Source: a virus (taxonomy: Duplodnaviria > Caudoviricetes). From it: DNA of 40,254 bases. The notes beneath the pieces are model-generated. The model saw nothing but the letters and a program-made list of their open reading frames with translations. It made no database searches and was not told where the DNA came from. The position numbers were made by a program, and so were the translations under genes. Position 1 is the stretch's first letter. Each line of letters begins with the position of its first letter. The DNA is taken from positions 1 through 40,254 of IMG/VR virus record IMGVR_UViG_3300027819_000027, one strand, 5' to 3'. This document shows positions 1 to 40,254 of the stretch, in pieces.

Positions 1-99
1 TCAATTTTCAGCATCTCGTTTCTCCAAGTTGTTGCATAACCCGGCAGTCCACCTGACCTGCCGCGATAAGGCCGCGTCAGTCAGGTGACTTTTGCGTTA
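1..99 (+). repeat. Exact direct repeat of 39742-39840 (contig-end overlap)
   Basis: 99 identical bases; identity stops immediately after the attC core GTTA. Confidence 0.97.
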
Positions 100-102
100 T
101 GC
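34..102 (+). repeat. attC-like recombination site (copy of site A, short allele)
   Basis: GCATAAC...CACCTGAC...GTCAGGTG...GTTATGC, 69-bp imperfect inverted repeat bounded by AAC and GTT cores. Confidence 0.88.
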
Positions 103-264
103 TCGATGTAGAGCACTCCGGCTGATGATTTCGCGCTGCCCGTTCTCGACGAACTCAACCAACGCAGAATTACATCGGCCCCTGTAAATTACCCGACAGA
201 GCCTGTTGAAAAGCGTCTGCCGCTTAATGTTGTTTTTCCAGCAGTATCGGTACAGCGTGATCAT
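97..264 (-). CDS. Small hypothetical phage protein, 55 aa (MITLYRYCWKNN...ISRSALHRA)
   Basis: Read manually; stop TAA lies inside the attC GTTA core. Confidence 0.7.
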   Translation of the reverse strand: MITLYRYCWKNNIKRQTLFNRLCRVIYRGRCNSALVEFVENGQREIISRSALHRA

Positions 265-5744: not shown

Positions 5745-5783
5745 TTTACTTCCTCCTTTTGTTAGTCCAGTTAACTGGACGGG

Positions 5784-6245: not shown

Positions 6246-6452
6246 TTAAATGAGGTCAGATATTTCTATCTGATATTTTGCCACAATCTTTTTTAGGTCG
6301 TTAATGTCCCACGTGTCTGCCTTTAACCAGTTGCGTATTGTCTCGTCTGATACACCAAGCAACCCGGCCAGATCAACATCACTAACCTTACGTAATGCCT
6401 TAAATGCCTTGATTTTCTCAGAAGTATTAAGGCCCTCAAATAATCCGCTCAT
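6246..6452 (-). CDS. Cro/XRE-type helix-turn-helix regulator, 68 aa
   Basis: DVDLAGLLGVSDETIRNW HTH; AAGGAG RBS; first gene after divergent promoter. Confidence 0.82.
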   Translation of the reverse strand: MSGLFEGLNTSEKIKAFKALRKVSDVDLAGLLGVSDETIRNWLKADTWDINDLKKIVAKYQIEISDLI

Positions 6453-6477
6453 GTTCGATCTCCTTTCTTTTTGCCTC

Positions 6478-6505
6478 ATTATACGCTTAAAATATACCAA
6501 GTCAA
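6478..6505 (-). promoter_or_regulatory. Sigma70-like leftward promoter for the HTH/replication operon
   Basis: TTGACT-N16-TATAAT on the minus strand. Confidence 0.7.
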
Positions 6506-6534
6506 CTATTTTCTTTGGCCTATAGCAATAATAC

Positions 6535-6563
6535 TTGACAAACCCTTTTTCTTTTGCTAAGGT
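6535..6563 (+). promoter_or_regulatory. Sigma70-like rightward promoter reading into the cassette array
   Basis: TTGACA-N17-TAAGGT with extended -10 TG. Confidence 0.7.
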
Positions 6564-6584
6564 GCAATTAAACAAGGAGGGACT

Positions 6585-6872
6585 ATGAAGCCGAAAAACG
6601 AGTTGGTAGAAGCAATCAGGCGCCACGAACGAGACGCGCAACTTCTGCTTTACCTCAAATGTGTCCTGGCGATCGTGGGCCTTGCAGTGATTGTTCTGTT
6701 GCTTCGGGCCGCGTTCTTGGCCCCCGCGCCGATTGACCTCCCTGATCCAGATGCGGTGAAAAGGGAGGTCTTCAACCGCTTGGATGCACGGGGACTGAGC
6801 CGGAAGACAACGGTTATGATCGAGGGGGGAAGCTATAAGTTTGAATGGAAAGGGAGGTTTTATAGATTATGA
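6585..6872 (+). CDS. Hypothetical single-TM membrane protein
   Basis: AAGGAGG RBS; hydrophobic stretch. Confidence 0.7.
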   Translation: MKPKNELVEAIRRHERDAQLLLYLKCVLAIVGLAVIVLLLRAAFLAPAPIDLPDPDAVKREVFNRLDARGLSRKTTVMIEGGSYKFEWKGRFYRL

Positions 6873-7036
6873 GCCAGCAATCTGAGTGGGAAAATCTAAA
6901 AGAGCGGGAGAATCAGGCATCGATTGACCGCCAGTTCTATGACGAAGAAGAACCATACTGGCCAGATAACGAACTGCCGGGCATGTGGGAGAACGCTGAC
7001 TTTATGGGTGGGGCTGTTTCCGCTCGCCTCGATTGA
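6869..7036 (+). CDS. Acidic hypothetical protein, 55 aa; its C-terminus is encoded by the terminal attC
   Basis: ATGA overlap with upstream gene; MSQQSEWENLKE...SARLD. Confidence 0.55.
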   Translation: MSQQSEWENLKERENQASIDRQFYDEEEPYWPDNELPGMWENADFMGGAVSARLD

Positions 7037-7046
7037 CTGGTTAGAT
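6988..7046 (-). repeat. attC-like site z (last in array, degenerate)
   Basis: GGAGAAC...GTTAGAT; stem relies on G-T pairs on the + strand. Confidence 0.6.
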
Positions 7047-7059
7047 GGAGTAATTAAAA

Positions 7060-7245
7060 ATGCAAAGAATACTTGTGCCATTATACACACTAATATTTTG
7101 GAATAGATTGTTAAATGGAGATAAATCACCATACCGCCGATCCTCTATTATTAAGGTGAAAGGCTGGCGCACAATATTGGTTGGCAGTCCATTTGCGAGA
7201 GAAACAATAACACCACTGTTCAAATTATGGAAGTGGTACATCTAA
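7060..7245 (+). CDS. Cassette-borne hypothetical protein, 61 aa
   Basis: GGAG RBS; flanked by GTTAGAT/ATCTAAC; stop in core. Confidence 0.65.
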   Translation: MQRILVPLYTLIFWNRLLNGDKSPYRRSSIIKVKGWRTILVGSPFARETITPLFKLWKWYI

Positions 7246-7300
7246 CGCTAAAGGTCAGCGGCAGGCGCTTTTGCCTGTCCGCTGTAGTGACTGGTTATGG
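7240..7300 (-). repeat. attC-like site a
   Basis: ATCTAAC...CAGCGGCAGGC...GCCTGTCCGCTG...GTTATGG. Confidence 0.88.
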
Positions 7301-7366
7301 AGGTAACGCTCAAGCTAAGCGGCGTGGCGGTCGTTTGCCACGTCCGTCTTGAGCGCTTTGTTAGCA
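7301..7366 (-). repeat. attC-like site b (abuts site a)
   Basis: AGGTAAC...CGGCGTGGC...GCCACGTCCG...GTTAGCA. Confidence 0.85.
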
Positions 7367-7383
7367 GGTTTTATAGGAGGAAT

Positions 7384-7866
7384 ATGATACCGACAGAGAC
7401 ATGGGTTTTACCAAGGCCGCGTAAGAACAGATACCCAGGAGGATTTCCACTTCACTTTGAAAAGAAATTATGGAAACTTCTCGGCTGCCCCACAATGGTG
7501 TTGCATCCCTTTGGAGGAGCGGCGGAGATAGGAGACAGGGTAGATATAAACCCAGAAACGAATCCCAAGTGGATCGGAGACGCACACAAACTTGATATGA
7601 TCCCAGACCAAAGTTATGACCTTGTAATTCTCGATCCACCCTATGACAATGAACAGGCTGCCAAACTATATAAAACACCAAAGTTGCATTATGGGAAATA
7701 TGTATCTGAGGCGATGAGAGTTTGTAAGATTGGAGGCAAGGTTGCCATATATCATTGGGTATGGACTCCGAGACCGAAGAATGGAAAGTATTGTAACCGT
7801 ATCGTAATCTTGACAAGGGTATGGCACAGACCAAGGGTTTGTAATGTTTATTTACGTGAAAGCTAA
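7384..7866 (+). CDS. Cassette-borne small amino-(N6A/N4C) DNA methyltransferase-like protein
   Basis: LHPFGG motif I, DLVILDPPY motif IV; AGGAGG RBS before ATG 7384; stop in AGCTAAC core. Confidence 0.78.
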   Translation: MIPTETWVLPRPRKNRYPGGFPLHFEKKLWKLLGCPTMVLHPFGGAAEIGDRVDINPETNPKWIGDAHKLDMIPDQSYDLVILDPPYDNEQAAKLYKTPKLHYGKYVSEAMRVCKIGGKVAIYHWVWTPRPKNGKYCNRIVILTRVWHRPRVCNVYLRES

Positions 7867-7947
7867 CGTAGAGATAACCCGCCGGCCACCGACCAGGCGG
7901 TAAAGTGACAGGCGTGGTTCCGGTCGGGGTTGATTGATTTGTTATAC
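7861..7947 (-). repeat. attC-like site c
   Basis: AGCTAAC...AACCCGCCGG...CCGGTCGGGGTT...GTTATAC. Confidence 0.82.
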
Positions 7948-7973
7948 GGATTATTAGGACATGAAGGAGAAAG

Positions 7974-8129
7974 ATGCCTGACCAGCAACCCCACTGTGTA
8001 GGGGATATATACGGCCAATGTTGTACCGCTATGGTGGCGGAAGTCGGAAAGACGCTGACATTGGTGGGTCTCGATACCCTTAAAATCATGCACGGATGTC
8101 CTTTTTATTTATTGTTGTATAACGCTTGA
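7974..8129 (+). CDS. Cassette-borne Cys-containing peptide, 51 aa (MPDQQPHCVG...)
   Basis: AAGGAG RBS; read manually; cassette bounded by GTTATAC/GTATAAC. Confidence 0.55.
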   Translation: MPDQQPHCVGDIYGQCCTAMVAEVGKTLTLVGLDTLKIMHGCPFYLLLYNA

Positions 8130-8194
8130 CTTGAGCGGCGGGGGTTTTATCCCGTCCGCGCGTAGCGAGGATCGGCTGGAATGACTGGTTGGGC
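8117..8194 (-). repeat. attC-like site d (apparently chimeric)
   Basis: GTATAAC...GTTGGGC; the two arms resemble different attC types and pair poorly. Confidence 0.65.
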
Positions 8195-8208
8195 GTAACT
8201 TTTGGAGG

Positions 8209-8286
8209 AAACATTCAGCCGCCCGGCCACTGATTATGCTATTTGCACAGAGCGTGTTCCGGGTCGGCTGGATTAACAGGTTATAT
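8209..8286 (-). repeat. Truncated attC-like site e
   Basis: TCAGCCGCCCGG...CCGGGTCGGCTGGA...GTTATAT stem intact; left core and spacer shortened. Confidence 0.65.
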
Positions 8287-8307
8287 TTAATATTTAAGGA
8301 GTTTACA

Positions 8308-8463
8308 ATGGCTAAAATATTCGACATAGTGATCTGCCCCGTTTGCAAAGGTGAAAAATTAGTTGATAGTGGCCAGGTAATGAAAGATGCAAAAATCTAT
8401 ATTACTAAAAAGCAATGCCCAAAATGCAAGGGGCACGGAAGAGTCGGAGTAGAGCGAATATAA
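8308..8463 (+). CDS. Cassette-borne DnaJ-type zinc-finger peptide
   Basis: CPVCKG and CPKCKGHG; AAGGAG RBS; stop in ATATAAC core. Confidence 0.72.
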   Translation: MAKIFDIVICPVCKGEKLVDSGQVMKDAKIYITKKQCPKCKGHGRVGVERI

Positions 8464-8525
8464 CGTTTGAATTCAGCGGCTACGCGCGTTTCTTGCGCGG
8501 AGTCCGCTGGAATGATGGGTTGGCC
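8458..8525 (-). repeat. attC-like site f
   Basis: ATATAAC...TTCAGCGGCT...AGTCCGCTGGAA...GTTGGCC. Confidence 0.9.
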
Positions 8526-8568
8526 GGCACCGTGCCGCCAGCACCGACTTTTGAGACAGGAGATAGTG

Positions 8569-8772
8569 ATGACGATCAAATTCACCGAAGGCGAGATAAA
8601 GGCGCTCGAAGGCCACCCGGACGCACTGCGCGCACTGGCGGACTGGCACAGCGTGAAGGAAACGGAAGCCGACGCAATAGGCGGGCCGGAGATGGCGGAC
8701 TGCGTAAGCCACCATGCGGCGCGCTACGACGAACTGCGCGCAGAGGCCACCAAGATCGAGGCGGACTACTGA
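8569..8772 (+). CDS. Cassette-borne hypothetical protein (MTIKFTEGEIKALEGH...)
   Basis: AGGAG RBS; visibly GC-rich codon usage; bounded by GTTGGCC/GGCCAAC. Confidence 0.7.
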   Translation: MTIKFTEGEIKALEGHPDALRALADWHSVKETEADAIGGPEMADCVSHHAARYDELRAEATKIEADY

Positions 8773-8784
8773 CATGGTAGTGAC

Positions 8785-8841
8785 GGCCAACGACGAAATC
8801 AGCGGGGAGCGTAGCGAATCCGCTGTATTGATTTGTTATTT
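8785..8841 (-). repeat. attC-like site g (57 bp)
   Basis: GGCCAAC...CAGCGG...CCGCTG...GTTATTT. Confidence 0.88.
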
Positions 8842-8857
8842 TCGCCATGAGGAATAT

Positions 8858-9049
8858 ATGACAAATTACAAAATAACTCAATTAGTTAAAACTGCATACA
8901 AAAACAGATCAGAAATAATTTACGAAATTAGTAATGAGAGATATGCGCGTACTGAGTTTGAAAGATTAAAAAAAGATTTTCCCGCTGAGCACTTTGAATT
9001 GTTTAAAGCTGTGTACGATGAAGAGTGCTTAGACTGGACTGGAAAATAA
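8858..9049 (+). CDS. Cassette-borne hypothetical protein (MTNYKITQLVK...)
   Basis: GAGG RBS; AT-rich; stop in AAATAAC core. Confidence 0.7.
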   Translation: MTNYKITQLVKTAYKNRSEIIYEISNERYARTEFERLKKDFPAEHFELFKAVYDEECLDWTGK

Positions 9050-9132
9050 CGTCTGAATTGAGGCGAGCGGCGCAAAAGACTTGGTGAGGAAAGAAGCGGC
9101 TTTTACGCTTCGCCTCGAATGATTGGTTGGGC
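9044..9132 (-). repeat. attC-like site h
   Basis: AAATAAC...TTGAGGCGAGCG...CGCTTCGCCTCGAA...GTTGGGC. Confidence 0.88.
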
Positions 9133-9153
9133 GTTTGCCCGGAGAGGAACCGA

Positions 9154-9366
9154 ATGACAAAAGAACTACCCCCGCCAGTGACGCGGAAAAGCTCGAAAGA
9201 TGACCTTTGGGAAGAACTGGAGTGCGCCCGAGCCGAAATTGACCAACAGCAGCATGTGCTCAATGACTGGCGTGACCGTGTAGCGAAATCTGAGGCCGAA
9301 GTTGGTGGCCTGCGCTACCAGATCAGCGTGATTCGCGCTGTGCTGGCTGGGGATGTTCCACGGTGA
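9154..9366 (+). CDS. Cassette-borne coiled-coil hypothetical protein (MTKELPPPVTRK...)
   Basis: GAGG RBS; bounded by GTTGGGC/ACCCAAC. Confidence 0.7.
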   Translation: MTKELPPPVTRKSSKDDLWEELECARAEIDQQQHVLNDWRDRVAKSEAEVGGLRYQISVIRAVLAGDVPR

Positions 9367-9367
9367 C

Positions 9368-9407
9368 ACCCAACAGCGCAATAGATGGAATAATTCCACT
9401 TATTGAG
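9368..9407 (-). other. attI-like array-head site, copy 1
   Basis: CTCAATAAGTGGAATTATTCCATCTATTGCGCTG|TTGGGT on the minus strand; similar to 39476-39515 and 39932-39971. Confidence 0.65.
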
Positions 9408-9447
9408 ATAAGGGGGGGGATAAGGCGGAATTGTCAGCCCCCTTATC
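9407..9447. terminator. Inverted repeat between convergent operons, possible terminator
   Basis: GATAAGGGGG...CCCCCTTATC 10-bp stem. Confidence 0.4.
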
Positions 9448-9507
9448 GCTTCATCTGTAACGGATCCTGGCGCACCATTAGTTGTAAGAGAAGCGCGGGG
9501 GCTTAGA

Positions 9508-9729
9508 TTATTTGTTTGCCCGACACTCTTTCAGTGCCTTCAACAGCAGTTCATTATCCTGATAGAGCCGGTCAACCACCTGCTTGCTGATTGTCACCGT
9601 CTCCTGCCCGTCGATCACCACGTAGCGCGGACTGCACCCGGTCATGCTGTTCAGCAATAGCAGCAGCAACGCGGTCAGAATCCCCACCCTCCAGGCCGTT
9701 ACGCATCTCTTGGACATGCCTATCCACAT
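9508..9729 (-). CDS. Outer-membrane lipoprotein spanin (Rz1-like)
   Basis: LLLLLLNSMTG-C lipobox; overlaps the upstream TM gene in another frame; last gene of lysis block. Confidence 0.7.
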   Translation of the reverse strand: MWIGMSKRCVTAWRVGILTALLLLLLNSMTGCSPRYVVIDGQETVTISKQVVDRLYQDNELLLKALKECRANK

Positions 9730-9835
9730 CAGCGTCCTCCCGTCTTGCTCTACCCTCTGCGCTATTGCGGAAGGCCAGGTAGTGGGCTATCAGTGACAGG
9801 ATCGCCACAGATAGCCCGATGATTGCTTCTACCAT
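9572..9835 (-). CDS. Inner-membrane spanin (Rz-like)
   Basis: N-terminal TM plus helical domain, overlapped by lipoprotein gene. Confidence 0.65.
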   Translation of the reverse strand: MVEAIIGLSVAILSLIAHYLAFRNSAEGRARREDADVDRHVQEMRNGLEGGDSDRVAAAIAEQHDRVQSALRGDRRAGDGDNQQAGG

Positions 9836-10008
9836 ACCACAGCGTCCTTAGTGACCAATCGCATAATAACACCAAGCACCTGCGTGATTATGCCTGAGTA
9901 CAACGCCCACTGCGCGTCACCCAGAATACCCGTCCCGATGAGAACCGAGCCAACCAGACCTAAAAACTGAACCCACACACTCTTTGATGCCCAAACTTTC
10001 TTTTCCAT
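9829..10008 (-). CDS. Putative holin, 59 aa, two TM helices
   Basis: MEKKVWASKSVWVQFLGLVGSVLIG...VIMRLVTKDAVVW; AGGAGG RBS; between endolysin and spanins. Confidence 0.75.
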   Translation of the reverse strand: MEKKVWASKSVWVQFLGLVGSVLIGTGILGDAQWALYSGIITQVLGVIMRLVTKDAVVW

Positions 10009-10035
10009 TTTATTCCTCCTTATTCGGTTAGTAGT

Positions 10036-10344
10036 TTAATCACCCTCACCGTAAGAATAGTGATTCCCATCTGCTCTTTTAAAGCGTCCACCCCAGGTGC
10101 ATTTAGGATCAAGACTTTCCCAGTACTCTCCAAGGGGTTTATGTGCCTCGGTTGTTTGAAGCCACACGCCATCTTTAAAGAGATTCAAATCTATGGCCAG
10201 GCGTGAGTAATGAAAACTACCCGCGATATGTCCTGTCTTAGCCCACGCATCGCCGAAGGTTAGTTCATATCCAGATATATACGCGAACTGTATCAGTTTG
10301 CTTATGAGATTAGTGAATACTCTCTGGTCATTCCCTATTGACAT
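10036..10344 (-). CDS. Endolysin, M15-family zinc peptidase
   Basis: SFHYSRLAIDL and WGGRF...DGNH motifs. Confidence 0.9.
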   Translation of the reverse strand: MSIGNDQRVFTNLISKLIQFAYISGYELTFGDAWAKTGHIAGSFHYSRLAIDLNLFKDGVWLQTTEAHKPLGEYWESLDPKCTWGGRFKRADGNHYSYGEGD

Positions 10345-23526: not shown

Positions 23527-24360
23527 TCATACTCCCTGTGGTTGCCAGATAGGACGTGTGCCTAGTTTATACTCTCTTGTGTAAATCTCCATTTTGGAAC
23601 TCCGTTCGTGATTCTTTTTTAAATCCTCCGTAACTGCAATCGTCGCCCAATCGTCGGGATATTGGATCATTGCCTCCAATAGTCCGTCTGAAAAGTTTAA
23701 CAATATTCCCGGATGGTTTCTTATCTCTTCTGAAAGGTATTGAGTTTGCAAAACCATAGAAGCATTGGTGATATAGTCAATGCCATTGGCTCTGACAATT
23801 ATCATGTTATCAAAAGCTACTTTCTGCTCGCCGGTTACATGGGTGAAGTTAAGGAATGACCCCTCACAGCCAAAATACGCAACCGTCCCATACCCCATTT
23901 TGACGAATAAGTTAGCCGCACGGCATACCGCAGTCGGCCCCCCGCCTATCCCATTCTCTTGGTCGCATTCAAACATATTGAAAACGCGGATTTGCTCTTT
24001 CTGAAACTGGTTGAACTGCCTGCGATGCACAAACGTCGCGAATACCGCCCCCTTTACCAAATCACCAGTCTTAAACTCGCGGCGGCTGGCGTCTATTGCG
24101 TACATATAGCAAGGGATCCCATTATCGGATAAATAACCGGCGGTATCATTAACGGCATAAATATCGCCTGGCCATTTTCGGAGAATATCTAATCTCAGGG
24201 GAAGTCCGGGGCCGCCACCACAAACCGCCACAGGAGGTAGAATTTCTTCACTCCATCGGACTTTTGGATATTTCTGCGCCTTCCGGTGGTTTATAGCCAG
24301 TTGCTCAATATCGGTGTTGCACTGAGCAACCATGTTTATTCTATACGGGGTCATGCACAC
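23527..24360 (-). CDS. Maf/DUF115(MptE-like)-family transferase-like protein
   Basis: VAVCGGGPGL...IYAVN...GGGPTA...MGY...YFGCEGS pattern. Confidence 0.6.
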   Translation of the reverse strand: MCMTPYRINMVAQCNTDIEQLAINHRKAQKYPKVRWSEEILPPVAVCGGGPGLPLRLDILRKWPGDIYAVNDTAGYLSDNGIPCYMYAIDASRREFKTGDLVKGAVFATFVHRRQFNQFQKEQIRVFNMFECDQENGIGGGPTAVCRAANLFVKMGYGTVAYFGCEGSFLNFTHVTGEQKVAFDNMIIVRANGIDYITNASMVLQTQYLSEEIRNHPGILLNFSDGLLEAMIQYPDDWATIAVTEDLKKNHERSSKMEIYTREYKLGTRPIWQPQGV

Positions 24361-25889
24361 ACCGTCCTATTGACCATGCCACGCGCGACGTTGCGCCGAT
24401 TCTCTATGGCTGGCCGTTTCTTACCGGCAATAAAACTGCCGATACTCTTTTCAAGATTTGGGAAAACCTGATAGATCGCTTTCGATAACCTGCATGTGTT
24501 GATAATCGCTTTCTGCTTCAAGCCCTGGCCGGGATACATCGTTTCCAGATTGTGCCTGCCGATCTCATAAGAAACCTCAGACATCTTGGCAACAAACTCA
24601 GGGCTATACTTGAAAAAGAACTCCTCCTGAATATAGGTGTCATCGTACATATATCTTTGAGAAAGGGTGCTGACAGCGTAGGGATTCTCTGCATTCTGGT
24701 AGAGAGAGACGCCGCAGTCCTGATACCTGGGATTCAGCCAGTAATCCTTGAAACCTCCCTGAAGGACATACTGCTGATAAATCTCCGTCCCAGGGAAGGG
24801 AACAATCGAACCGGAACCGTTAAACATATGGGTCACATCCCAAAGCTCATATATCATGTTTAACGTGTTCTGAAGGCTCTCCACCGTCTCCCAGGGGAAC
24901 CCGAACATCAGGTTCACCCCAACTTGCAAACCGGCTGCGTGGGCTGTCTTACAAGCCGAGATGTTCTTTTCTACCGTCGTTCCCTTGCAGGTTCTTTTTA
25001 GAGTTTCGGGATCGCCGCTTTCAATGCCAAATATGACCATATAGCAACCGGCATCTTTCATCATCGAAGCCATTTCCTTTGTCATCATGTCGGCGCGTGT
25101 CCATGCCTGCCAGGTAACTTTCGGGGTAATTTTCTTTATCCCGTCGCAGAACTCGGCAACGTGCCTCTTGTTCATCGTGAAACAGTCGTCGGCTACAACG
25201 AACTGACGCACGCCGTAATTATCAACACGGTTTTGAATGTCTGCCATTACCTGGGGGATGGGGTTAAACGTCGTCTTTTGGCCATAGACCTGATAATCAC
25301 AGAAGGTACACTTTCCGGGGCAACCTCTACTTGTATAAATCCGGTGGATTCCCTTCAATAGTCCGTCGCCTTCAAGCCGGAACCGCTCAATATCAAACGG
25401 GCTGAAATCAGGATCGGGCAAAGTTGAAAGGTCTTTTATCCGAGGACGCGGTTCATTCCGCACGATATTCCCATCAGTTCCACGATAGGTAATGCCGAGA
25501 ATGTCCTTAAGGTCTTTGCCTTGAAGGTATTCCCTTAATGTTTCTTCGCCTTCATTTCTGACGACAATATCAACGCCATGTTCGATCGCTTCTCGATCGC
25601 AGGTCGTAACGTGCGTTCCTCCGGCGATGACAAGAATCCCCTCTTTCTTCAGTCGCTTTACAAGGTCGTAAACCTTTAATATCTGCATGGTGAGCATGGA
25701 GATACCAACGATGTCCGGTTGATATTCTCGCGCTACTTCCATGAAGTAGTCATTGCTCAGTGGCTGCTTGAACGTGCTTTCTTCGATCCTGACTTCATAG
25801 CCGTTTTCTTTGAATATCGCCGCTATCATAGCAAGCGAATGGGGCATCTCAGACATCGAACTCGGATAGAGAAGAAGTGCCTTACGCAT
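24351..25889 (-). CDS. Cobalamin-binding radical SAM protein (class B methyltransferase-like)
   Basis: PHSLAMIAA...PDIVGIS...IAGGTH B12 domain; TSRGCPGKCTFC; FGIESG; MFGFPWET. Confidence 0.92.
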   Translation of the reverse strand: MRKALLLYPSSMSEMPHSLAMIAAIFKENGYEVRIEESTFKQPLSNDYFMEVAREYQPDIVGISMLTMQILKVYDLVKRLKKEGILVIAGGTHVTTCDREAIEHGVDIVVRNEGEETLREYLQGKDLKDILGITYRGTDGNIVRNEPRPRIKDLSTLPDPDFSPFDIERFRLEGDGLLKGIHRIYTSRGCPGKCTFCDYQVYGQKTTFNPIPQVMADIQNRVDNYGVRQFVVADDCFTMNKRHVAEFCDGIKKITPKVTWQAWTRADMMTKEMASMMKDAGCYMVIFGIESGDPETLKRTCKGTTVEKNISACKTAHAAGLQVGVNLMFGFPWETVESLQNTLNMIYELWDVTHMFNGSGSIVPFPGTEIYQQYVLQGGFKDYWLNPRYQDCGVSLYQNAENPYAVSTLSQRYMYDDTYIQEEFFFKYSPEFVAKMSEVSYEIGRHNLETMYPGQGLKQKAIINTCRLSKAIYQVFPNLEKSIGSFIAGKKRPAIENRRNVARGMVNRTVCA

Positions 25890-26790
25890 GAATCTCCTCC
25901 TGATTTGAAGTGATTTGACCTACTTTGCGGGTAGGGTTGTTGGCGTAAAGCAATACTTCAGGGTTGTAGTTCGTCTGGTCACAATGTCGGCAGATGTAGT
26001 CGTTAAACATTCCGGTTTGGTGCGCCAGCCGAAGCGCCTTGTAAGCCGCCCCCTTGTAAACCTCTTCAATGGTCTGGTGGTTCAGGTCGCCCAGGACAAT
26101 CTGACGGTGAATGTCCCAACAGCAGGGGCTTACCTGTCCGCTGGCATGGACATACATCGGCCCGTTTTCTGGTCTGCCGCAGGTTGTCTGCCTTGTGCTG
26201 TCAATTTTTCGGTAATCCCTTCCCTGTACCCAATTATGAGGCTCCCAAACGAAAACCTCATCAAGTTTTGGCTCCCACATTTCTATCCAATCATTCTTTT
26301 CATGCTTGTTTAAATCAGTCTGGACGAAAAGACCGATAGTGTAGGGATGCCCATTCTTGTACTGCAAGAATCCAAGGATGTTTTTCATTGAGTCAAAGTG
26401 CTTGACTTTGCCCCGGTGAAAAGCTTCATAGGTTTTCTGAGTATGCCCGTAAATGCTTAACTTTAAAATATCAATGTACTTTATGACGTTGGCCCACTTG
26501 TCAGGCGTCATGTGAAAGGCTGTAGTCGAGACGAATATCTTCGCCTTTGGCAACTTCTCCCGGATAAAAGCAAACCGGTCAAAGAGGTTCTTGTCAAGAA
26601 AGCACTCACCAAAACCGCAGGTGTCCACGGATTCCAATTCATACTGAGCAGCGTCGTCAATAATCTTCTTGAACAAGCCCATGTCCATCGCCTGTAACTT
26701 CTGTGTGAATTTCTCACGGGGGCAGATAACACAATGAGCATCACATATGTTGGTGGTTTCTATAATGATCTGTTTATTCCGTAACTCCAT
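25882..26790 (-). CDS. Radical SAM protein with SPASM/twitch domain
   Basis: ETTNICDAHCVIC; GFGE; CGRP...GQVSPCCWD...CRHC. Confidence 0.92.
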   Translation of the reverse strand: MELRNKQIIIETTNICDAHCVICPREKFTQKLQAMDMGLFKKIIDDAAQYELESVDTCGFGECFLDKNLFDRFAFIREKLPKAKIFVSTTAFHMTPDKWANVIKYIDILKLSIYGHTQKTYEAFHRGKVKHFDSMKNILGFLQYKNGHPYTIGLFVQTDLNKHEKNDWIEMWEPKLDEVFVWEPHNWVQGRDYRKIDSTRQTTCGRPENGPMYVHASGQVSPCCWDIHRQIVLGDLNHQTIEEVYKGAAYKALRLAHQTGMFNDYICRHCDQTNYNPEVLLYANNPTRKVGQITSNQEEIHA

Positions 26791-28075
26791 TCTCCGTCCT
26801 TTCTAGTGGTGTTACCCATTCCGCTGCTATGTATTTTCGTTCTATGTATTCTTTTAGTCCCCTGGCGATGGCTTTGTACTCGCGCCAACTTTCCGTCTCC
26901 TGTGATGGGGATTCTATTACCATATGTGAACCATCCGCGTTAAAATGGCAGGTGGCTACACTGTCTTGCGTACAGGAATCAAACGAGATAAATCTTATTT
27001 GCGAGCAGCCAAGCAATTCCGCAATCATTACCGCAGTTATTGAAGACGGGGTATTCCATGCGGCATTGAAATCCAACACATTGTCGAAAACGTAGCGCGG
27101 TTTATAATCCTTGTGCCTACCCGCGACTTCTCGTTCATGCACCAGCAGCGTTGCAGAAACCGGCGGGGCGATGGGTGCATGCTCCGGCGGGTCATAATCC
27201 TTTTGCAATGAATAAATCTTATTTTCCAACCCTAATTTTTCCACCGGGATAATAGACTCGCTGATTGCGATTACCGGGCCAGGGCCAAAATCTTCTTTCT
27301 TCAAATTAACAAGACTCGGCCCCTTACCGACGATCCATGCGGTCTCGCCGTGATGTTTGTATCTTAATCTTTCAATGCAGTACGGGTAATCAGGGCCTCC
27401 GGGGCGCCTGCGAATGCTGGTATTGTAGTTTCCTTCATACCCTCTGACTCCGTAATGCGTAAGCGTGATGTCTGGACTAAGGTATATTTTCCCACCCTGC
27501 TCTATGTACTTGCGTTGAAAATATATATCTTCACCCATCCTCTGCCCATCGGGAGCTATTTCACATCTGAAAGCCTCCAAAACCGGGCCGTCCATTTCGT
27601 AGGTATTCAGGACCGGTCTGGTTCGTTCAAACGCCTTTCGACTGTAAATAATGAACCCACCCGGCAAGGACAGAACATTAAACACAATGGCCCCGCTCGA
27701 TGTATTGCCAACGTATTCAGAATCCTCCAGGACTGGCGTTACCGCGTATGTGTTCCAGTCACCCTTACAAAGATAAGCGCCACCCACCACCTCCGCACCA
27801 GCCATTGCAGCTTTTAAAAGTCTGCCGAAGCCTTCCACTTCCCAGCCAAGGTCGGAATCAATAATCATTAAATGCGTATGATGACTCTTGAGGAACTTAT
27901 TAACCAGTGCGTTTTTCGCTCTGTCAACGTAGGAATCGCCGCTGATCTCAACATATGAATATTTCACGCCCGCTTCCTGTAATACCCGTAAGGAACTCAT
28001 AAGGCTCGTAATGTAGGGGCTGTATGCCTTGACTTCATAAAAAGCGCTTGCGATAAGAATCGAAAAATCCTTCAT
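26774..28075 (-). CDS. GT-A glycosyltransferase-like domain fused to a Maf/DUF115-like domain
   Basis: VDRAKN...LMIIDSD DxD, GEDIYF; C-terminal AWIVGKGPSL...LLGC...SFD. Confidence 0.7.
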   Translation of the reverse strand: MKDFSILIASAFYEVKAYSPYITSLMSSLRVLQEAGVKYSYVEISGDSYVDRAKNALVNKFLKSHHTHLMIIDSDLGWEVEGFGRLLKAAMAGAEVVGGAYLCKGDWNTYAVTPVLEDSEYVGNTSSGAIVFNVLSLPGGFIIYSRKAFERTRPVLNTYEMDGPVLEAFRCEIAPDGQRMGEDIYFQRKYIEQGGKIYLSPDITLTHYGVRGYEGNYNTSIRRRPGGPDYPYCIERLRYKHHGETAWIVGKGPSLVNLKKEDFGPGPVIAISESIIPVEKLGLENKIYSLQKDYDPPEHAPIAPPVSATLLVHEREVAGRHKDYKPRYVFDNVLDFNAAWNTPSSITAVMIAELLGCSQIRFISFDSCTQDSVATCHFNADGSHMVIESPSQETESWREYKAIARGLKEYIERKYIAAEWVTPLERTENGVTE

Positions 28076-35657: not shown

Positions 35658-35990
35658 TTAGCAGCTCCTAAACGCTGGCGTCTTGTTCCCGTTTTTGGCA
35701 TGGATTAGGCGCGCTATGGCCTGGACCTGGGGTATTGTGATGTCTGGGCGGATAAATATGCCGTCGGGCGTCCAGGCTGTTATGCCTAGGTCTCGGCGCA
35801 TATCTAGATGGAGATCGGCGTCGAGGCGCACTAATCCAGTTGACTGGACTGGCACTCGGCAGGGTTGGCTGGGTGTTACATTTTGGGTGTTACATTTTGG
35901 GGGTGTTACAACTGATATTTGGCTGGGTGTTACATTTTGTCGGCGTGTCCGCTGATACTCTGCCATCTCTGTCGCGGTGCGCTGTTTCAT
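35658..35990 (-). CDS. Hypothetical protein with NVTP repeats
   Basis: AEYQRTRR start; first gene of the late operon. Confidence 0.55.
   Translation of the reverse strand: MKQRTATEMAEYQRTRRQNVTPSQISVVTPPKCNTQNVTPSQPCRVPVQSTGLVRLDADLHLDMRRDLGITAWTPDGIFIRPDITIPQVQAIARLIHAKNGNKTPAFRSC
35871..35939. repeat. Four GGGTGTTACA(TTTTG) direct repeats
   Basis: Copies at 35871, 35885, 35901 and 35925. Confidence 0.85.
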
Positions 35991-37009: not shown

Positions 37010-37159
37010 GTGGACTCATGTATTTGGACTGAGGCGGGCGATGGTATTTGGGAAACTGGTTGTGGGAAAACGTGTGACTTTTTGATGGACGGCGATCCGG
37101 AATATAACGGGATGACGTTTTGTCCCTTTTGTGGGGCGCCATTAAAGATGGACGTTTAG
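37010..37159 (+). CDS. Small zinc-ribbon protein, 49 aa
   Basis: C.W......WET.CG...FCPFCG; GGGAGG RBS; read manually. Confidence 0.6.
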   Translation: MDSCIWTEAGDGIWETGCGKTCDFLMDGDPEYNGMTFCPFCGAPLKMDV

Positions 37160-37315
37160 TCCAGTTGACTGGACTGGATTAAAAAAGTTCTTGACTTTCG
37201 GCTCCTTTATGGCACAATAAAAGTCATCAGGTTCGTCGGCGGACGACTTGCAGCCCCTGGCCTTGATCTGGGGGCTGGCCTGGTGACTTAAAATAATGCT
37301 ATCAAGGAGCATATT

Positions 37316-38034: not shown

Positions 38035-38053
38035 TAGCTGCCTTCTTGCGCTG

Positions 38054-38245
38054 TTATGTGGACAATACAGCATGATACGATTTATCCAGCAATGCCTTAA
38101 ATTCCTCAGCCGCTTCTTTGTCGAGCCAATGAAACAATCGTGGAGATTCAAAGTTGTGGTCTCCAACTGGCCGGACTGCCCACATCCCATAAAAGGATTC
38201 GTCGCAAAAAACCTCCCATTTAACCCGTATTTTTGTATCTCTCAC
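38054..38245 (-). CDS. Cassette-borne hypothetical protein
   Basis: GGAGG then GTG; stop in GTTATGT core. Confidence 0.6.
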   Translation of the reverse strand: MRDTKIRVKWEVFCDESFYGMWAVRPVGDHNFESPRLFHWLDKEAAEEFKALLDKSYHAVLST

Positions 38246-38252
38246 AATACCT

Positions 38253-38313
38253 CCATAATCAATCACTACAGCGGACGTCTAGGAGTGCCTGCCACCGCCC
38301 CTTGGCGTTATCT
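38253..38313 (+). repeat. Degenerate attC-like site
   Basis: CCATAAT CAATCACTACAGCGGAC...GGCGTTATCT; 5' arm nearly matches the minus strand of site a. Confidence 0.6.
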
Positions 38314-39048: not shown

Positions 39049-39459
39049 CTAGTTTGGCAGCTTGGCCAGGAGTTCTTTTAGCTCTATGATTTTATCTTCA
39101 TAGAAGCCCTTTGGAAGCTTACACACTTGGCGGCTCGCGTCCAGGTGTTCGTTGTACCTTTTCGCCCCGATTTCCCCAATCAATTTAGGCACAAATATTT
39201 CGTAATTGCCCCGTAACGGCCCGTTACAATAATAACACTGCGGCCTGACGACATCGTCCTGGAATAGGATGTAGTTTCCCCGCCCCCCGATCCCGTGGCC
39301 GGCTTGTAGGTTTTTCCAGAGATCAATTTTCCCGCAGGTGTAGCATTGGCAAAGTCCGTCATCGTAGGAATATTTCAGCCGGACCATTTTCGAAAACAAA
39401 TCCCAGCAATCCTTCTTCATCTGTTTAGGTGTTTTCCCTTTGGACTTTTTCTTTTCCAC
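39049..39459 (-). CDS. ninG: NinG/Rap-like recombination endonuclease
   Basis: W.LFS..VR...CYTCG...QAGH...RPQCYYCN. Confidence 0.8.
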   Translation of the reverse strand: MEKKKSKGKTPKQMKKDCWDLFSKMVRLKYSYDDGLCQCYTCGKIDLWKNLQAGHGIGGRGNYILFQDDVVRPQCYYCNGPLRGNYEIFVPKLIGEIGAKRYNEHLDASRQVCKLPKGFYEDKIIELKELLAKLPN

Positions 39460-39475
39460 TTTACCCCCTTGTTGC

Positions 39476-39515
39476 CTCAATAGGCGGAATAGTTCCGCTT
39501 ATTGCGCTGTTATGC
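39476..39515 (+). other. attI-like array-head site, copy 2
   Basis: CTCAATAGGCGGAATAGTTCCGCTTATTGCGCTG|TTATGC. Confidence 0.65.
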
Positions 39516-39755
39516 ATCAACAACACCGGTGTCCATCCGGTCATCGGCTGAAAAATGCCGCCGGTTATAGTTGCCACCGAGCGCCGATGAAAGCGCCTTT
39601 CCTTTTTCGTCATCGAACAGCTTCACAACCATGCCGTCAGGCCAAATCTGTGCGCCAATCGCTAAAACTTTCCCCGCCTTGTTTGCGTCGCGCACGGCCT
39701 GAAAAAGCGGCTCCAGCAGGGTTATTTGTTCTTCCGTCAGTTCAATTTTCAGCAT
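39510..39755 (-). CDS. Cassette A hypothetical protein, 81 aa
   Basis: GGAG RBS; bounded by GTTATGC/GCATAAC; stop in core. Confidence 0.72.
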   Translation of the reverse strand: MLKIELTEEQITLLEPLFQAVRDANKAGKVLAIGAQIWPDGMVVKLFDDEKGKALSSALGGNYNRRHFSADDRMDTGVVDA

Positions 39756-39774
39756 CTCGTTTCTCCAAGTTGTT

Positions 39775-39843
39775 GCATAACCCGGCAGTCCACCTGACCT
39801 GCCGCGATAAGGCCGCGTCAGTCAGGTGACTTTTGCGTTAGGC
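39775..39843 (+). repeat. attC-like site A (long allele)
   Basis: GCATAAC...GTTAGGC. Confidence 0.9.
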
Positions 39844-39931
39844 ACAGCCCAGTACCAAATGTCGTCGCGCAACTTGACACCCTCGGCAAACGGGTGTGAC
39901 CTTTTTCTTTTCCACTTTACCCCCTTAATAT

Positions 39932-39971
39932 ATCAATAGGCGGAACTATTCCGCTTATTGCGCTGTTATCT
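39932..39971 (+). other. attI-like array-head site, copy 3
   Basis: ATCAATAGGCGGAACTATTCCGCTTATTGCGCTG|TTATCT. Confidence 0.65.
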
Positions 39972-40151
39972 TTTAGATATTTCCTTTATTTCTTGCTCGA
40001 TAATTTTTTTACTATTTCTTCGCCGGGTAACACGAGAGAAAAACTTAGCTATTTTTCTGATCCCGATTATTTCCCACGGACTCCGGCCAGCTTTATGTCC
40101 CTGCTCCGTTTTTCGGGCATAATAATTAGCATAATAATTATTGTAACTCAC
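39966..40151 (-). CDS. Cassette B basic hypothetical protein
   Basis: GTG at 40151; AT-rich; bounded by GTTATCT/ATATAAC; stop in core. Confidence 0.55.
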   Translation of the reverse strand: MSYNNYYANYYARKTEQGHKAGRSPWEIIGIRKIAKFFSRVTRRRNSKKIIEQEIKEISKR

Positions 40152-40171
40152 GTGATCAACCCCAATTAAAA

Positions 40172-40230
40172 ATATAACCAGTTCACTCCAGCCGACCGCA
40201 GAATCGCGGCGGCTGACCTTTGCGTTATGC
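40172..40230 (+). repeat. attC-like site B
   Basis: ATATAAC...CAGCCGACCGC...GCGGCGGCTG...GTTATGC. Confidence 0.88.
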
Positions 40231-40254
40231 TCGATGTAGAGCACTCCGGCTGAT

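Follow-up and report, generated by a model that had tools for sequence, protein, structure and literature searches.

The attI1 site of integrons is made up of L and R boxes together with DR1 and DR2, which are direct repeats. Cassette arrays that lack an integrase are usually explained by loss of intI or by off-target insertion. The L box of attI1 reads CCCTAAA (PMC4792948), and 30 environmental attI families have been reported from sediments in which Deltaproteobacteria abound (Elsaied et al., 2011; PMC3146285). In phages, Qi et al. (2023; PMC9892861) reported 17 CALINs and active phage attCs. The Shewanella prophage M16-3, which is cryptic and has its own intI, carries a CALIN headed by a host-type attI (PMC9892861). 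In the available part of the same paper, no attI is described for the CALINs of virulent phages, and mention is made neither of multiple solo attI copies nor of arrays that vary from one sister phage to another, nor of an attI within a segment that can be excised (PMC9892861).

This study addresses the origin of integrase-free cassette arrays and whether such arrays go on changing, using a 40,254-nucleotide stretch of phage DNA (IMG/VR record IMGVR_UViG_3300027819_000027), the whole of which is referred to below as the window. The original prediction, made from the letters of the window, held that a conserved hairpin followed by a core ending in G/TT (the slash marks the crossover) heads every cassette array and is a candidate phage attI. 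We consider it probable that the motif is a phage-borne attI of a bacterial integron clade, and that the phage, which has no integrase of its own, relies on a host IntI.

Results

The phage, its attI-type sites and its cassettes

The window is a complete virus record (100% by CheckV) of a groundwater phage encoding a P22-like portal, coat and packaging proteins, a helicase, a primase, NinG and lysis proteins (44 proteins scanned); its best portal matches among GenBank phages share about 40% identity. The holin-like ORF of the lysis locus has a profile match below the cut-off, and ninG and one lysis ORF, used as queries, returned no useful relatives. No IntI was found in the window by tblastn, so that the intI in cis of a complete integron is missing, and neither a tyrosine recombinase (PF00589) nor a resolvase (PF00239) was matched anywhere in this 100%-complete record. 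Elsewhere in the window, the region between the coat and tail genes includes another large ORF and a pair of radical SAM genes, one of which has a B12-binding domain (24351-28075), possibly with a role in the virion or in DNA modification, and a 22-base palindrome of the AGTCCAGTT-ACTGGACT type, a possible operator, is repeated at 5762-5783, 35831-35852 and 37156-37177 and is present in the sister phage described below.

The full 35-base pattern was found at all three predicted places (9372-9406 on the minus strand, 39477-39511 and 39933-39967 on the plus strand), with no match in 100 shuffles even at 3 mismatches, and the predicted core-only copy was confirmed (Table 1). The core is shared by all four array heads of the window; in the core-only copy the L box is degenerate and the upstream arm absent, and a profile built from intI-linked sites misses it. 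The far core of the first attC complements the bases after G at 6/7, 7/7 and 6/7 positions for copies 1-3, the figures of the original prediction being reproduced on our hand-curated map, and at 5/7 for the core-only copy. The loop, predicted at three or four bases, has three in all three window copies and four only in the sister phage, and the conserved element reaches about 22-25 bases further upstream than had been proposed, to the TTCC box. Each copy does stand at the start of a first cassette, as predicted, but copy 3 does so inside the ninG array and heads no separate array. Copy 1 heads array 1 directly beyond the lysis genes.

Copy 1 is followed by nine attC-like sites, and the core-only copy, copy 2 and copy 3 by a single one each; array 1, with its nine sites, and the ninG array, with two, correspond to CALINs (at least two attCs, no intI nearby). 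The attCs were called with our own heuristic and hand curation, based on far-core matches and folding energies, and not with IntegronFinder; the attC behind copy 3, overlooked by the automatic finder, and the core-only copy, which it paired wrongly, were placed by hand. Array 1 includes two gene-less units of 76 and 61 bp, and its last site folds poorly. The cassette ORFs of the window face the attI-type site. A promoter scan of 6300-9700 gave no site defining a Pc; a strong predicted promoter site lies on the minus strand (6505-6478), and none clearly drives array 1. Rfam gave no match at the motif and one chance-level match elsewhere in the window.

Some of the cassettes have features of their own. 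A small ORF (6869-7046) overlaps at its 3' end with the final attC-like site of array 1, and its homologue in the sister phage ends differently, which suggests recombination at a secondary site inside the gene. The cassette ORF at 7297-7866 has no Pfam match and contains a DPPY motif, which we take to be typical of amino-methyltransferases. An attC-like inverted repeat lies in the 3' half of the 81-aa cassette ORF (39515-39575), as if an old site were read into protein.

Table 1. Positions of attI-type sites, cassette arrays and flanking genes in the window.
Feature	Position	Strand	Details
attI-type module, copy 1	9372..9430	minus	crossover G/TT between 9374 and 9373; 21.2 bits
attI-type module, copy 2	39454..39511	plus	crossover 39509/39510; best-strand 17.5 bits
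attI-type module, copy 3	39910..39967	plus	crossover 39965/39966; 19.8 bits; inside excisable segment B
Core-only copy TTGCGCTGTT	38046..38055	plus	crossover 38053/38054; spacer and G/TT
Array 1	6988..9373	minus	nine attC-like sites in minus polarity; ORFs plus, pointing to attI
Array 1 attC-like sites, first five	9044-9132, 8785-8841, 8458-8525, 8193-8286, 8117-8194	minus	far-core match and folding energy
Array 1 attC-like sites, last four	7861-7947, 7301-7366, 7240-7300, 6988-7046	minus	far-core match and folding energy
First cassette after copy 2	39510..39837	plus	81-aa ORF on minus; attC 39775-39843
Cassette after core-only copy	38054..38313	plus	70-aa ORF on minus; attC-like 38253-38313, AAT far core
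Segment B, 387 bp	39838..40224	plus	attI copy 3, one cassette, attC 40172-40230
B-less allele	1..126	plus	attC 34-102 joined at G/TT to fixed right flank
ninG	39049..39459	minus	left flank of copy 2; PF05766, E 5.7e-10
Lysis genes: peptidase M15, holin-like ORF, two small ORFs	9508..10344	minus	flank of copy 1

Relatives of the motif beside bacterial integrase genes

A scan of metagenome and viral contigs for the palindrome only, with GTT not required, gave 122 sites, or 85 non-redundant ones once window copies, duplicates and contig-end sites had been removed. GTT follows one arm at 5-6 bases in 53 of these 85 and flanks both sides in none, and each of the distances +3, +4, +7 and +8 accounts for 0-1 site; the remaining 32 palindromes, without GTT at +5/+6, count against reliance on a host IntI. 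One site without GTT (L041) was dropped from the set.

At 13 of the 60 non-redundant GTT sites, which include the three window copies and one sister-type site, an IntI reading frame starts 9-120 bases upstream on the opposite strand, facing away, and at seven further GTT sites the DNA resembles an intI leader. Only three of the 13 IntI matches are near full length, the rest being cut by contig ends, frameshifted or deleted, which again weighs against the preferred reading. The IntI of locus L098 scores 444 bits against TIGR02249 (cut-off 265). About 23 of its best 120 relatives are named just "integron integrase"; those with a taxon label are mostly Desulfobacterales or Deltaproteobacteria, with single labels of FCB, KSB1, Neomarinimicrobiota and Pseudomonadota. 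The attCs of the GTT sites lie downstream and rarely upstream. Among sites with at least 1 kb downstream, the first attC complements the heptamer of its own site in 24 of 33 cases, compared with 40 of 156 when heptamers were swapped; one locus (L080), with G followed by a T run, is probably spurious and was excluded from this test and from the covariation test.

A profile built from only the 13 intI-linked sites gave 17.5-21.2 bits for the window copies, where the highest score obtained from 50 resampled windows was 8.9, and the nearest relative of copy 3 is an intI-linked site (L132). The spacer is 5 bases in all three window copies and 6 in 12 of the 13 intI-linked sites, which counts against the host-IntI reading; the attCs of the window resemble those of intI-linked loci only weakly and over short stretches. 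The family thus has homologues adjacent to intI, an inverted L box with a short spacer and G/TT, and variable bases after G. Since its members lie between intI and the first cassette and contain a simple site with G/TT, which is the usual definition of attI, the motif, judged by its sequence, is a bacterial attI family and not a phage invention. The search for relatives suggested by the original prediction therefore bore out its dedicated insertion site without intI (variable cassettes follow the site, the phage has no intI, and bacterial contigs have intI directly upstream), while the attribution to phage had to be changed, the site being a copy of a bacterial attI family and not phage-specific.

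Solo sites in other phages

Of the 35 stretches that strict patterns derived from the window picked out of viral contigs, 34 proved to have no palindrome, and what was left was a second assembly of the same phage; in GenBank phages and plasmids, matches to the attI-type site stayed at chance level. A second viral scan that required GTT gave 60 stretches, among which the profile retained sites in six records besides this phage. Solo sites accompanied by phage genes and downstream attCs are present in five of them, namely G002 (two sites), G003, G004, G006 and G007. No intI was found in these records, which are 28-94% complete, so that an intI could lie off the fragment. The sixth record, G005, also has a site, but those of its proteins that were tested resemble a bacterial cluster for sugar modification, and it was not counted as a phage. 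Another record, G009, has the palindrome without GTT. G002 also has a third, core-only copy resembling that at 38046 of the window (L224, 12285-12309), behind which no attC was found. G003 (L225, near 9894-9955) and G004 (L227, 36333-36394) carry a nearly identical site and attC, and their portals belong to different families.

At least 7 of the 23 scanned metagenome loci without a nearby intI carry phage replication, recombination or tail genes (L059, L073, L076, L077, L082, L092 and L093). Methyltransferases recur as cargo in phage records and metagenome loci alike. The ORF of the first cassette is forward at 9 of 10 intI-linked or remnant sites and reversed at 8 of 9 phage-record sites, in both cases counted over sites that are not independent; solo metagenome sites are split into 5 forward and 5 reversed, which speaks against a strict orientation rule. 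Co-orientation with the phage operon appears to be the likelier rule.

Variation between sister phages and within the population

A sister phage, on a contig binned in a bacterial genome (G001:C5), is 90-99% identical over most structural genes. Its lysis locus has an attI-type site followed by cassettes other than those of the window, and its ninG locus has a variant site, two other cassettes and the right flank of the window. The arrays of the two phages diverge from G/TT onwards between flanks that are 96-98% alike. The lysis-locus site of the sister is identical to copy 2 of the window and not to copy 1, which suggests exchange between copies. The sister has no array at the position of the window's core-only copy. 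One cassette at its ninG locus is methyltransferase-like by eye. In another contig (L084), the sister-type ninG is joined to the site and first cassette of the sister lysis locus; either the arrays of inverted copies have been swapped or the assembly is chimeric.

Within the population, segment B, which includes a 25-codon ORF on the minus strand (39838-39915), is missing in part of the molecules. Positions 1-102 of the window repeat 39742-39843 and positions 86-126 repeat 40214-40254, and the form with segment B is present in another assembly. In runs X1 and X2, which may be the source of the record and a single data set, depth was about 17.5 over segment B and about 43 over its flanks, values that do not translate into shares of molecules, and a 51-base B-less junction contig had a depth of 11.8. 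At the joint, the two attCs have only nine bases in common, too few for an assembly slip. Segment B has been cut out attC-to-attC in some molecules and is present in others, and since it carries copy 3, an attI can travel inside an attC-bounded segment. In the runs searched, whose contigs drop rare variants, neither an empty site nor an alternative first cassette was seen at copies 1, 2 or 3, and no joints or alternative allele were seen over array 1. The sole live polymorphism observed is attC x attC, which counts against insertion by a host IntI.

These data bear on the reading that the sites are passive relics, that is, attI-plus-cassette blocks acquired whole from bacterial integrons, changed only by ordinary phage recombination and no longer taking up cassettes. 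The constancy of the first cassettes in the runs would agree with it, as would the decayed look of the core-only copy and of the GTT-less G009 site and a spacer shorter than in most intI-linked sites. Arrays that part at G/TT between near-identical flanks argue against it; so does the orientation of the first cassettes, which differs from that at intI-linked sites, so that the blocks do not look like pieces of host arrays. As the attC x attC polymorphism moreover implies recent IntI action, we regard relics as improbable.

Anatomy of the site

The family consensus consists of TTCCA, about 10 bases, TAAT, 5 bases, AATARRYGGAA, 3-5 bases, TTCCRYYTATT, 5-6 bases and G/TT. RYYTATT occupies the position of the L box of attI1, and the upstream arm reads in the direction of an R box, at what we take to be roughly the distance of DR1 in attI1. 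On the other strand the TTCCA box, followed by T or C, is a start codon (ATG or GTG GAA). It opens IntI in frame in locus L088; in phages it opens ninG in the window (the TTCCAC box of copy 2, read as GTG GAA), an endolysin in G007 and a RusA-like protein elsewhere, and three different ORFs starting with VEKKK begin at this box in the present phage family. Such a double use fits a module copied from the 5' region of an integron, start included. Start-codon overlaps lie at 39454-39459 and 39910-39915 of the window, at the ninG locus of L044, and in L158, L059 and L088.

The hairpin of the original prediction is probably the wrong picture, because the arms show no consistent compensatory change. 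Over 54 sites, with relatedness not corrected, arm position 5 pairs in 38 (30 when shuffled) and position 7 in 43 (38), whereas position 6 pairs less often than shuffled (24 versus 32); mismatches show no preference for either strand. Three of the five outer arm positions likewise pair less often than shuffled, and both kinds of mismatch occur. The inverted repeat may be better understood as a pair of boxes bound in duplex DNA than as a folded substrate.

The pairing data also bear on the reading of the motif as a degenerate attC that would fold as a single strand, have TAAT for its far core, carry no extra-helical base and close the unit upstream as any cassette end does. The four-box layout (TAAT, 5 bases, arm, loop, arm, 5-6 bases, GTT) does recall an attC, copy 3 was picked up by the attC heuristic, the folding energy of copies 2 and 3 is about -9 kcal/mol, and one attC of the sister phage has a similar right half. 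The predicted lack of an AAC end nevertheless holds: the RYYYAAC far core of an attC, five bases before L'', is absent from copies 1 and 2, and copy 3 has AAT within a TAAT box that precedes the upstream arm by 5 bases, is shared by most family members and is missing in copies 1 and 2. The arms align without a bulge, several of their positions pair below shuffled levels, and the site occupies the attI position beside intI, with attCs on its downstream side. A degenerate attC is accordingly very unlikely.

A dimeric operator is poorly suited by a loop that varies between 3 and 5 bases. With this variation, a GTT fixed at +5/+6 from one arm only and the same core at all four array heads of the window, it is hard to credit that the motif is a host-derived repressor operator or promoter element beside which cassettes landed at an attG-like secondary site, even though half-sites are repeated through the intI upstream region, GTT is missing at some palindrome sites, LexA motifs of delta-Proteobacteria are divergent (PMC3108266) and an attG requires only GWT (10.1101/2022.09.11.507474).

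Discussion

Our preferred reading remains that of a bacterial attI carried by a phage. Most probably, a host IntI recombines the bottom strand of an attC with the double-stranded phage G/TT during infection and excises cassettes attC-to-attC; insertion at the phage site by a host IntI is what we infer, and the excision accords with the segment B alleles. The right arm (RYYTATT), the 5-6 base spacer and G/TT would form an L-R simple site recombined as double-stranded DNA, and the upstream arm as well as the TAAT and TTCCA boxes would serve as extra protein-binding boxes, like the direct repeats of attI1. A Desulfobacterota-type host would supply the IntI during infection. Cassette genes would be read from phage early operons, in which case no Pc should be needed. 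Excisable segments such as B may spread copies of the site by carrying them as cargo, and recombination may homogenise these copies.

A broader proposal, which we put forward tentatively and which is possible rather than established, is that many phages of sulfate reducers have domesticated a host attI, keeping several copies in early operons and a co-oriented cassette pool of their own, often with DNA methyltransferases, that host IntI would reshuffle while the site spreads in attC-bounded segments; such phages would carry integrase-free, multi-site, self-propagating integrons. The arrays begin at a host-type attI, vary from one sister phage to the other and show polymorphism within one population, and these features point to the host integrase serving phages as a generator of diversity. 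The claim is directly testable, the materials now available being the site, a cognate integrase and natural attC partners, and with the attI profile further sites of the clade can be sought and hosts proposed for uncultured phages.

Phages are known to carry parts of integrons; what appears to be new is a host attI family present in several copies and apparently used without an integrase. Multiple solo attI copies in integrase-free phages were not described in the literature that we searched, which included few subscription journals. The attI family of the window may be among those reported from Deltaproteobacteria-rich sediments (PMC3146285). A record from the phage CALIN study (PMC9892861), MW202573 (L236, 2100-3900), has reversed early-operon cassettes facing the lysis genes, placed like array 1, and gave no match to either attI profile.

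The sites resemble integron attI in lying between a divergent intI and the first cassette, in the G/TT crossover and in an inverted L-like box 5-6 bases upstream. They differ from attI1 in an 11-base inverted repeat and in the TAAT and TTCCA boxes, which produce an attC-like four-box layout, and from integron attI in that the phage copies are detached from intI and occur several per phage. With attCs (59-base elements) they share two inverted simple sites with 5-base and 5-6-base spacers; unlike attCs, they have no AAC, no extra-helical base and no consistent covariation, their sequence is conserved and they are always first in the array. The arrays are like the phage CALINs described so far in their intI-less attC arrays and methyltransferase cargo, and unlike M16-3 in that the phage has no intI and carries multiple solo attI copies (PMC9892861, as far as its available part describes them). 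Finally, as with attG and SALINs, cassettes lie off the integron platform, where an IntI working from afar would have inserted them; an attG remains compatible with the core-only copy at 38046, but the full copies match the profile of intI-linked attI, and in place of the GWT of attG, described in the available text as distinct from attI and attC (10.1101/2022.09.11.507474), they present a conserved element of 55-60 bases homologous to intI-linked attI.
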